A stretch of 59,280 nucleotides of DNA, the filler included, from Dugesia japonica (Eukaryota), in NCBI GenBank assembly GCA_001938525.1. It is 6 parts of 6 records of this genome, joined end to end, with 100 filler letters (N's around TTAATTAATTAA, not from the genome) between each part and the next. Parts side by side here need not be neighbours in the genome. Positions count along the whole stretch, not along the records: positions 9,488 to 20,003 come from MQRL01226384.1; 5 more parts are not named here. The stretch is one strand, 5' to 3'. Numbering within the stretch: the first letter of the stretch is position 1; each line of letters opens with the position of its first letter. Below, one piece after another: positions 16,860 to 18,159 of this stretch. The notes beneath the pieces were generated by a model. The model saw nothing but the letters and a program-made list of their open reading frames with translations, searched no databases and was not told where the DNA came from. The translations under genes and the position numbers were made by a program.

Positions 16860-18159
16860 TTTTGCACAATCATATGTTTTGCAATGAATGGACAGAAATA
16901 TGCTCCTAATTTTCAAGCATAACCGAAAACTGCGTGTAATTGTCTTAAGTGCATTTCNNNNNNNNNNNNNNNNNNNNNNNNNNNNNNNNNNNNNNNNNNN
17001 NNNNNNNNNNNNNNNNNNNNNNNNNNNNNNNNNNNNNNNNNNNNNNNNNNNNNNNNNNNNNNNAAATCAGGATTTTTGACTACCATTGCCATTTTTGTTC
17101 TCAACAACTCTCGGTTTATTTTACACTCTTTCATGACGGTTGCTTGATATATTCTGTCTATTTGTCTTAATATTTCATGATATAGGAAATCAATTTTGTT
17201 GTTGAAGTAAGTAGATATTTTTACATCTAATATATCAACTTTTGGTCTGGCATCTTTAATTTCCGTTGTTGACAAATATAAACCATTGTAATTGGTTACT
17301 ATTACTGCCACACCACATTTGGTGTGTACTCCTTTTTCAATAAGTCTTAGCGCTTCTTTTGTTGAATTTATATATATTGTTGGTGTTGCTTTTTCATTGA
17401 TCACCGTTGCTTTCCTTTTCTTATCTCGAATATTAGGTGGCTTATCTGTTGATTGAGTTTCACTAATTTCCCTCATTGCCACTGTTCTTAATTTTGTGAG
17501 TATATACTCAAATGGATTTATTTTGTACGTGATCATGGACTCTCTGGTATCACAACTTGTATCCTTTGAGCTACAAAATGGATATGTCATCATTTCCCAG
17601 TAGCATCATCGAATGTTGCTTTTATTTTCTTCAGTTCGATATGATATTGTCTTCTGACTAAGATATTAGTTTTTACCTGTCCCAATATTTTATAGCTTCC
17701 TCCTCCACAATATCCACTCGCTATGGACCATCCTACGATGTCTACTCTGTGTTTTACTCTTGCACCGATTTTTACTGGTAACTCATTGCCATGTACTTTT
17801 AGAGTTTTTCTTTTAAATGCCTTCTCACAATCCCTCGCATCTACTACTACTATGTCCGGAGACCAAGCTTGTATTAGTGGTACTATTTGTGTACTGACAC
17901 AATATTATACATCTTCTTCTAACTTTACACTACATTCATATGCATCTGCGTGTATAAAATCAGATTTTTGATACAAATTCATAACTGTTGGATTTGATAT
18001 TTTAATTTTTTTAGGATCCGCTTTTGGACAATTTTCTACATCCAGTAATAAATATTTTTTACCCCATTTTGGAGTATTACAATCATATTCTACTATCGCA
18101 TTTGTTCCTCGTGTCAATTCTAGTAACATTATTATAATTGTTATTATTGTAACCATTAA
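16860..18159 (-). pseudogene. Chuvirus-like (class III, gB-type) envelope glycoprotein with internal signal peptide; middle partly in N gap
   Basis: Signal LMVTIITIIIMLLELTRGTNA, then IVEYDC....LLDVENC, LYQKSDF..AYECSV, GWSIASGYCGGGSY, C......CDT, KCGVAVIVTNYNGLYL, TYFNNKIDFLYHEI.RQI..IY....KECKINRELL...MA..NPD; post-gap tail LHAVFGYA*KLGAY. These follow the order of motifs known from chuvirus G and related retroelement env proteins. One stop (17905) and one frameshift (~17594) in the ectodomain. Confidence 0.75.

Follow-up and report, generated by a model that had tools for sequence, protein, structure and literature searches.

Results

Gene content of the element

The window—the whole 59,280-nucleotide stretch of Dugesia japonica DNA analysed here—is AT-rich and gap-ridden, and its minus strand, to which all coordinates of the main copy refer, carries an element with the gene order gag-env-pol. 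The 5' end of the element likely lies at 19682, where the minus strand starts with TG and behind which 95–108 contigs per DNA run depart with low agreement (0.41–0.43), indicating many copies with different flanks. The stretch 19395–19682 is probably a 5' LTR plus leader, the inner boundary of which is not fixed, and a search for a partner LTR within the window found none. It is followed by a gag remnant (18990–19394), broken by stops, with repeats rich in Asn, Tyr and Arg and a CCHC zinc knuckle that scores slightly under the zf-CCHC cut-off (E 5.9e-4, 20.2 bits against 20.8) and matches the knuckle preceding env in the relative P0006 (E 0.004); no capsid domain was recognised in this remnant. 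Between the knuckle and env lies a decayed coding spacer with many stops (18181–18989), part of which (18470–18378) resembles the pre-env part of P0010 (52% identity over 31 aa, E 2.7e-4).

Downstream of env, pol runs in the order PR-RT-RH-IN. The aspartic protease region (15952–16686) matches gag-asp_proteas below the cut-off (E 1.2e-4) and the relative P0007 at E 4e-20. Next come reverse transcriptase and RNase H of Ty3/gypsy type (14406–15770, with stops and a 100-N gap inside) and an integrase (13040–14146, also with stops) that is 45% identical to those of P0007 and P0012. The match to RT_RNaseH_2 reaches 125 bits, RT_RNaseH and Integrase_H2C2 (66 bits) are above cut-off, and the best solved relative of the RT-RH part is the Ty3 RT 4ol8 (E 1.8e-30), the next entries being retroviral (E 2e-15). 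All of this, together with Pfam matches in the window that are of gypsy type and include no BEL/Pao-specific family, supports a Ty3/gypsy assignment of pol, in agreement with the sequence-only reading of this DNA. The start of a post-integrase extension (12906–13039), with a signal-like hydrophobic stretch at 13024–12974, closes the copy, which breaks off at about 12906 according to its translation and its self-alignment to a sister copy. With gag, env, RT-RH and IN all interrupted by stops or shifts of frame, and with about 530–540 nt, the transmembrane helix included, absent from the env sequence, the window copy is dead.

The surroundings are a mosaic of other remnants. Where the main copy breaks off, another related element joins on with its integrase tail and a signal-like stretch (12484–12930, minus strand), and just ahead of a scaffold join a short stretch like the 5' start of the element is found in opposite orientation (19980–20003, plus strand). 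Another gypsy-type pol is present in two degenerate copies, with about 80% identity between them, at 10854–12450 (minus) and 54015–55677 (plus), and further gypsy-type gag/pol remnants, in which env was not detected, lie on the plus strand at 29067–31744, 33292–35219 and 38170–39080. Within what was tested, an open frame of 429 aa with no useful Pfam match and two acidic frames (44153–46419, plus) do not belong to the env element. A near-exact duplication of 727 nt flanking a 50-N gap (31873–33376) is likely an assembly overlap, and the 50 N at 41334 likewise mark an overlap.

A chuvirus-type glycoprotein between gag and pol

Env is preserved in pieces. Piece 1 (17596–18180), which holds the N-terminal part of the ectodomain with the fusion-domain half and contains a single stop, matches the Pfam family PF24664 (Monjiviricetes_fusion) at E 5.4e-17 and 61.4 bits over profile positions 4–187 of 653. 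Piece 2 (17066–17605), in a different frame, matches the same family at E 5.9e-12 and 44.8 bits over positions 242–357. Both scores exceed the curated cut-off of 27 bits, so that the profile search against viral fusion glycoproteins proposed earlier came out positive. A hydrophobic stretch near the beginning of piece 1 (18112–18168, residues 5–23, Kyte-Doolittle 1.61), predicted to be an internal signal sequence, aligns with the beginning of the profile and forms a helix (7–22) in the model of this piece. A search of 1.84 billion proteins returned 47 relatives at E<=0.001, with long retroelement envs matching down to E 1e-23 and one named chuvirus protein, Sanya chuvirus 1 gp2, at E 8.9e-5. 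Ten of the 11 cysteines that are near-invariant among relatives are kept, and piece 2 is 27–47% identical to the corresponding next stretch of the relatives. Judged by these matches, the glycoprotein is a genuine member of the env family.

The motifs listed in the sequence-only reading are all found in translation on the minus strand in the order claimed, with spacings slightly off its patterns: YDC..LLDV..C, Q..F..EC.V and G..G.C.G..Y within 18180–17596, CG..T..L.L, YFNNK.DF.Y..Q..Y..C and PD within 17605–17066, and LHAVFG at 16939–16922. The gene is interrupted by a stop (17907–17905), a frame change near 17600 and a further stop (16915–16913). Of the proposed LH.V(F/Y)G tail, the placement held, as the motif falls in what is the post-transmembrane segment of the relatives. 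We dropped it as a conserved family motif, because none of 12 relatives fits the pattern.

The class III, chuvirus-G-like character assigned to this glycoprotein from its motifs was borne out by structure prediction, in agreement with the profile search. Piece 1, entered with X in place of its stop and with an alignment of 36 relatives, yielded a monomer model (pLDDT 84.4) whose best fold matches are glycoproteins of chu-like viruses and xinmoviruses (E 1.2e-10, TMq about 0.55). The 12 highest-ranking matches are all viral glycoproteins, from chu-like, xinmo-, qin-related and similar viruses, one of them unnamed, and herpes gB fragments appear from rank 15 on. As the window lacks the C-terminal half, a relative of full length, P0004, which shows 37% identity to each of the two pieces, was modelled in its place, again as a monomer (pLDDT 75.1). 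Its fold matches the glycoprotein of Tacheng tick virus 4 at E 5.8e-43 and HSV-1 gB at E 6.1e-14, with low TM-scores to solved gB (0.31–0.33 by query). Searching solved structures by sequence with either env piece gave no match below E 0.8. These models make the assignment of the window env to class III, by predicted fold, a sound one.

The gap in env

A gap of 106 N (16958–17063) stands where the remaining ectodomain and the transmembrane helix are absent from the sequence. From the final residue ahead of the gap to a glycine conserved beyond it, the distance is 141 nt in the window and 224–226 residues in eight of 11 relatives (the other three were missed by the pattern used), which makes the window env about 530–540 nt shorter across the gap; the suspicion that the gap is too short for what is missing was thus correct. 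At the threshold used, 11 of 12 relatives have a hydrophobic segment at the transmembrane position, and this segment falls inside the stretch missing from the window copy, in which no transmembrane helix is seen. Env then resumes with a post-transmembrane segment and cytosolic tail (16811–16957, single stop). A profile of the following stretch of 11 relatives matches 16945–16811 over positions 218–262 of 274 (i-E 2.3e-4), which places it after the transmembrane part, and among 792 overlapping six-frame pieces no other stretch has an E under 0.9 (runner-up 0.97). The glycoprotein is therefore tied to pol independently of the gap, as had been proposed from the tail motif.

The earlier reading had left two accounts of the deficit, an under-sized gap or a hidden deletion, and of these it is the deletion that gained. 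Four gaps in the window are measurable against paralogues, a fifth (53 N) having no paralogue: 100 N stand for 100 nt, 43 N for 43, 97 N for 83, and at the 50-N gap the flanks overlap by 28 nt. Since three of the four are sized within 14 nt of the paralogue distance, two of them exactly, and the mis-sized one errs by being too long, not too short, we consider an internal deletion considerably likelier than an under-sized gap. That the same element is present with the ectodomain and transmembrane helix hidden in the gap keeps a limited chance: mate-pair sizing is fallible in repeats, as the one mis-sized gap of the four informative ones illustrates; other copies run on past 17064 (21 contigs in run X1, six RNA reads in X14); and no joint spans the gap among the joints listed (15 of 66). 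Even so, the copy is interrupted on both sides of the gap regardless.

Abundance, selection and transcription of the family

The element belongs to a large family. In four DNA runs, from at most three samples, 3,818–4,810 contigs per run match 15900–19700, mostly 85–95% alike, with cover in all 30 bins of this interval and with gag, env and protease covered alike; this tally, which is no copy number, shows many diverged copies. A sister copy of pol lies on the plus strand at 39558–43405 (73–84% DNA identity), its env side cut off near the scaffold join at 39339–39438. Comparison of the two over 894 codons gives a dN/dS of 0.10, computed on pol alone, from which we infer that the family replicated under purifying selection. 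The RT catalytic motif is altered identically in both window copies (at about 15170, minus strand, and about 41040, plus strand) and differs from that of all five full-length relatives; this may reflect chance decay or a shared RT-dead sublineage, and is at odds with the dN/dS of pol. Four RNA runs contain 19, 225, 19 and 20 reads matching the element, and in the richest of them 218 of the 225 reads are under 95% alike, which identifies other copies as their source. Other copies are hence weakly transcribed, and the window copy shows no sign of transcription in these four runs.

Relatives with a single reading frame and a predicted second membrane protein

In five relatives (P0007, P0012, P0019, P0026 and P0050) env is followed by PR-RT-RH-IN in one ORF, and in six of 12 relatives tested a CCHC knuckle precedes env in the same ORF. 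These ORFs are automatic gene calls, and the single frame is seen in the relatives alone. The relatives with the best env matches also match the window pol at 36–45%, and the cysteine pattern, signal and anchor are common to relatives that are 25–45% identical. P0006, P0007, P0008, P0035 and P0050 have two or more aspartic protease domains in a single ORF, with up to seven matched protease stretches plus ankyrin and C2H2 domains in P0050; the window copy shows one protease. P0012, a gag-env-pol polyprotein of 2,627 aa filed as hypothetical protein HBK71150.1 of a Flavobacteriaceae MAG, is likely an animal sequence mis-assigned to a bacterial genome during binning.

Past the integrase, the sister copy (43287–43721, plus strand) encodes a signal-like stretch, an FN3-like domain and a Thr-rich stalk. 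The FN3-like identity is a prediction that rests on a protein-atlas lead (score 0.91; all ten best named matches in the fn3 clan; recognition 2212, under the guide value of 2300) and on likeness by eye; Pfam found no fn3 at E<=2 in this stretch or in four relatives. Two hydrophobic segments follow the integrase in P0012, P0019 and P0050, and one above threshold does so in P0007. Alphaviruses and flaviviruses make polyproteins that are cut apart in a manner comparable to what such an ORF would require, and herpes gB requires a receptor-binding partner. We tentatively suggest that Gag, a gB-type fusogen and Pol might be made in one frame with an FN3-bearing membrane protein, cleaved by signal peptidase and the element protease, the FN3 protein then acting as the receptor-binding partner; this may well prove wrong. 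No published account of a one-frame polyprotein or FN3 extension came up in the literature covered, and the words polyprotein, fused and fibronectin are absent from the main text of Chary & Hayashi (eLife 2026, PMC13524379).

Discussion

The gene order, env family, breaks, abundance and selection on pol described above lead us to conclude with good confidence that the window holds a degenerate copy, likely with an internal deletion, of a Ty3/gypsy family that is abundant and ordered gag-env-pol, and that its env is a predicted class III fusogen by which working copies would likely pass between cells. What the relatives show, and what is generally known of class III fusogens and of signal peptidase, allows an outline of how such copies would work. 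A working copy would make one long Gag-Env-Pol protein, as its relatives appear to do. The Gag part would stay in the cytosol, the internal signal sequence would direct the env ectodomain into the ER lumen, and the single transmembrane helix would bring the chain back to the cytosol, where protease, RT, RNase H and integrase would follow, so that Pol would be tethered to the membrane until released by the protease. Particles budding from the cell would be coated with env trimers, which would bring about their fusion with an adjacent cell; this target is probably a stem cell or a germ cell. The copy in the window, in which the transmembrane part is not seen and which is interrupted throughout, would be incapable of such env-mediated transfer.

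How the glycoprotein came to lie beside this pol can be read in other ways. It is hardly credible that chance alone, through an assembly chimera or the remains of an independent endogenous chuvirus, placed env next to an unrelated gypsy pol. The N gap does split env in a region that is a mosaic of repeats, and PMC10084718 reports that such glycoproteins lie mostly beside fragmentary LTR elements, with no clear gypsy capture in arthropods (a result which may explain why the sequence-only reading took BEL/Pao elements as its premise). However, env goes on at the protease side of the gap, five relatives have env and pol in one ORF, and related contigs span gag, env and protease alike; the ORFs and the env tail past the gap largely refute this reading. 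It seems very improbable as well that a gypsy element of the host lineage took up its glycoprotein from a chuvirus separately and recently. In its favour, the best viral fold matches are chu-like glycoproteins and Sanya chuvirus 1 gp2 is matched at E 8.9e-5; against it, the matches to retroelement envs are much stronger, the env of a published planarian element shows about 48% identity when counted by eye, and the text of PMC13524379 argues for an ancient origin. In an unrooted tree of the N-terminal half of env, which retained all of its 37 rows, P0003 is the partner of the window env (support 100/99), and the group around this pair holds all nine env-then-protease rows, eight of them so labelled from Pfam matches and the ninth from a motif seen by eye. 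Five stand-alone G proteins, one of which is a named chuvirus protein, fall outside that group. The split has weak support (85/70); without a root, the tree fixes neither the donor nor the direction of capture, and it lends a recent separate capture no support.

A different question is what env is for. It could be kept for fusing host cells directly or for blocking reinfection, with the element spreading within cells; consistent with this, particles or fusion have not yet been demonstrated for gB-type errantiviruses according to the text of PMC13524379, and our selection figure comes from pol alone. We nonetheless consider such a role improbable, as cysteines, signal and anchor are conserved across relatives that are 25–45% identical, and in relatives env shares the reading frame of gag and pol, which suits particle assembly.

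As it stands, the finding has little bearing beyond this locus: the class described in the text of PMC13524379 gains one more family, represented by a degenerate copy, and the idea that chuvirus-type G is confined to BEL/Pao elements is corrected. Should the one-frame Gag-Env-Pol and the second membrane protein prove functional, they would bear on how gB-type errantiviruses enter cells without gD/gH/gL. Since the family is abundant in what is likely a laboratory flatworm, the question of entry could be tested in the element's own host.

The known systems closest to the window element are those of Chary & Hayashi, whose text describes Ty3/gypsy elements with an env of gB type across the animal kingdom, the order GAG-ENV-POL in Nematoda, Bryozoa and Platyhelminthes, and a Chuviridae-like glycoprotein adjoining gypsy POL in 114 arthropod elements. 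A chuviral G in a gypsy host, which the sequence-only reading had presented as new, is therefore already published there. The same text calls the entry mechanism of gB-type errantiviruses, which lack gD/gH/gL partners, unknown. The HSV/gB-type errantiviruses of Platyhelminthes with GAG-ENV-POL order share gene order, gypsy pol and env type with the window element, and six planarian elements are listed, with 1–215 copies and a median env identity of 33.5% to one another. These six are intact, whereas the window copy is broken, and the comparison with them is by env alone. The closest, Smed_errantivirus_3 (cysteine type C1a), has an env about 48% identical to that of the window, by a count made by eye of about 116 of 242 domain I–II positions, which clearly exceeds the median among the six. 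At this level of env identity, the window element would be a sister family and no copy of any of the six as listed there. The non-canonical nematode ERVs (Sacco et al. 2022, J Gen Virol 103:1739), as cited in PMC13524379, resemble the window element by description, being metaviruses with an RNA-virus-type glycoprotein ahead of pol, and belong to another host phylum. The Anakin elements of mosquitoes (Dezordi et al. 2020) are described as carrying the same glycoprotein family inside an LTR element, whose pol is of BEL/Pao type and not of Ty3/gypsy type as in the window. The G proteins of Jingchuvirales and xinmoviruses (PF24664) and herpesvirus gB have in common with the window env a profile match and a predicted class III fold, and fold alignments of P0004 put its identity at 17–22% with the best viral G proteins and at 9–12% with gB. 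Viral G is a stand-alone gene, whereas the window env is part of a retroelement.
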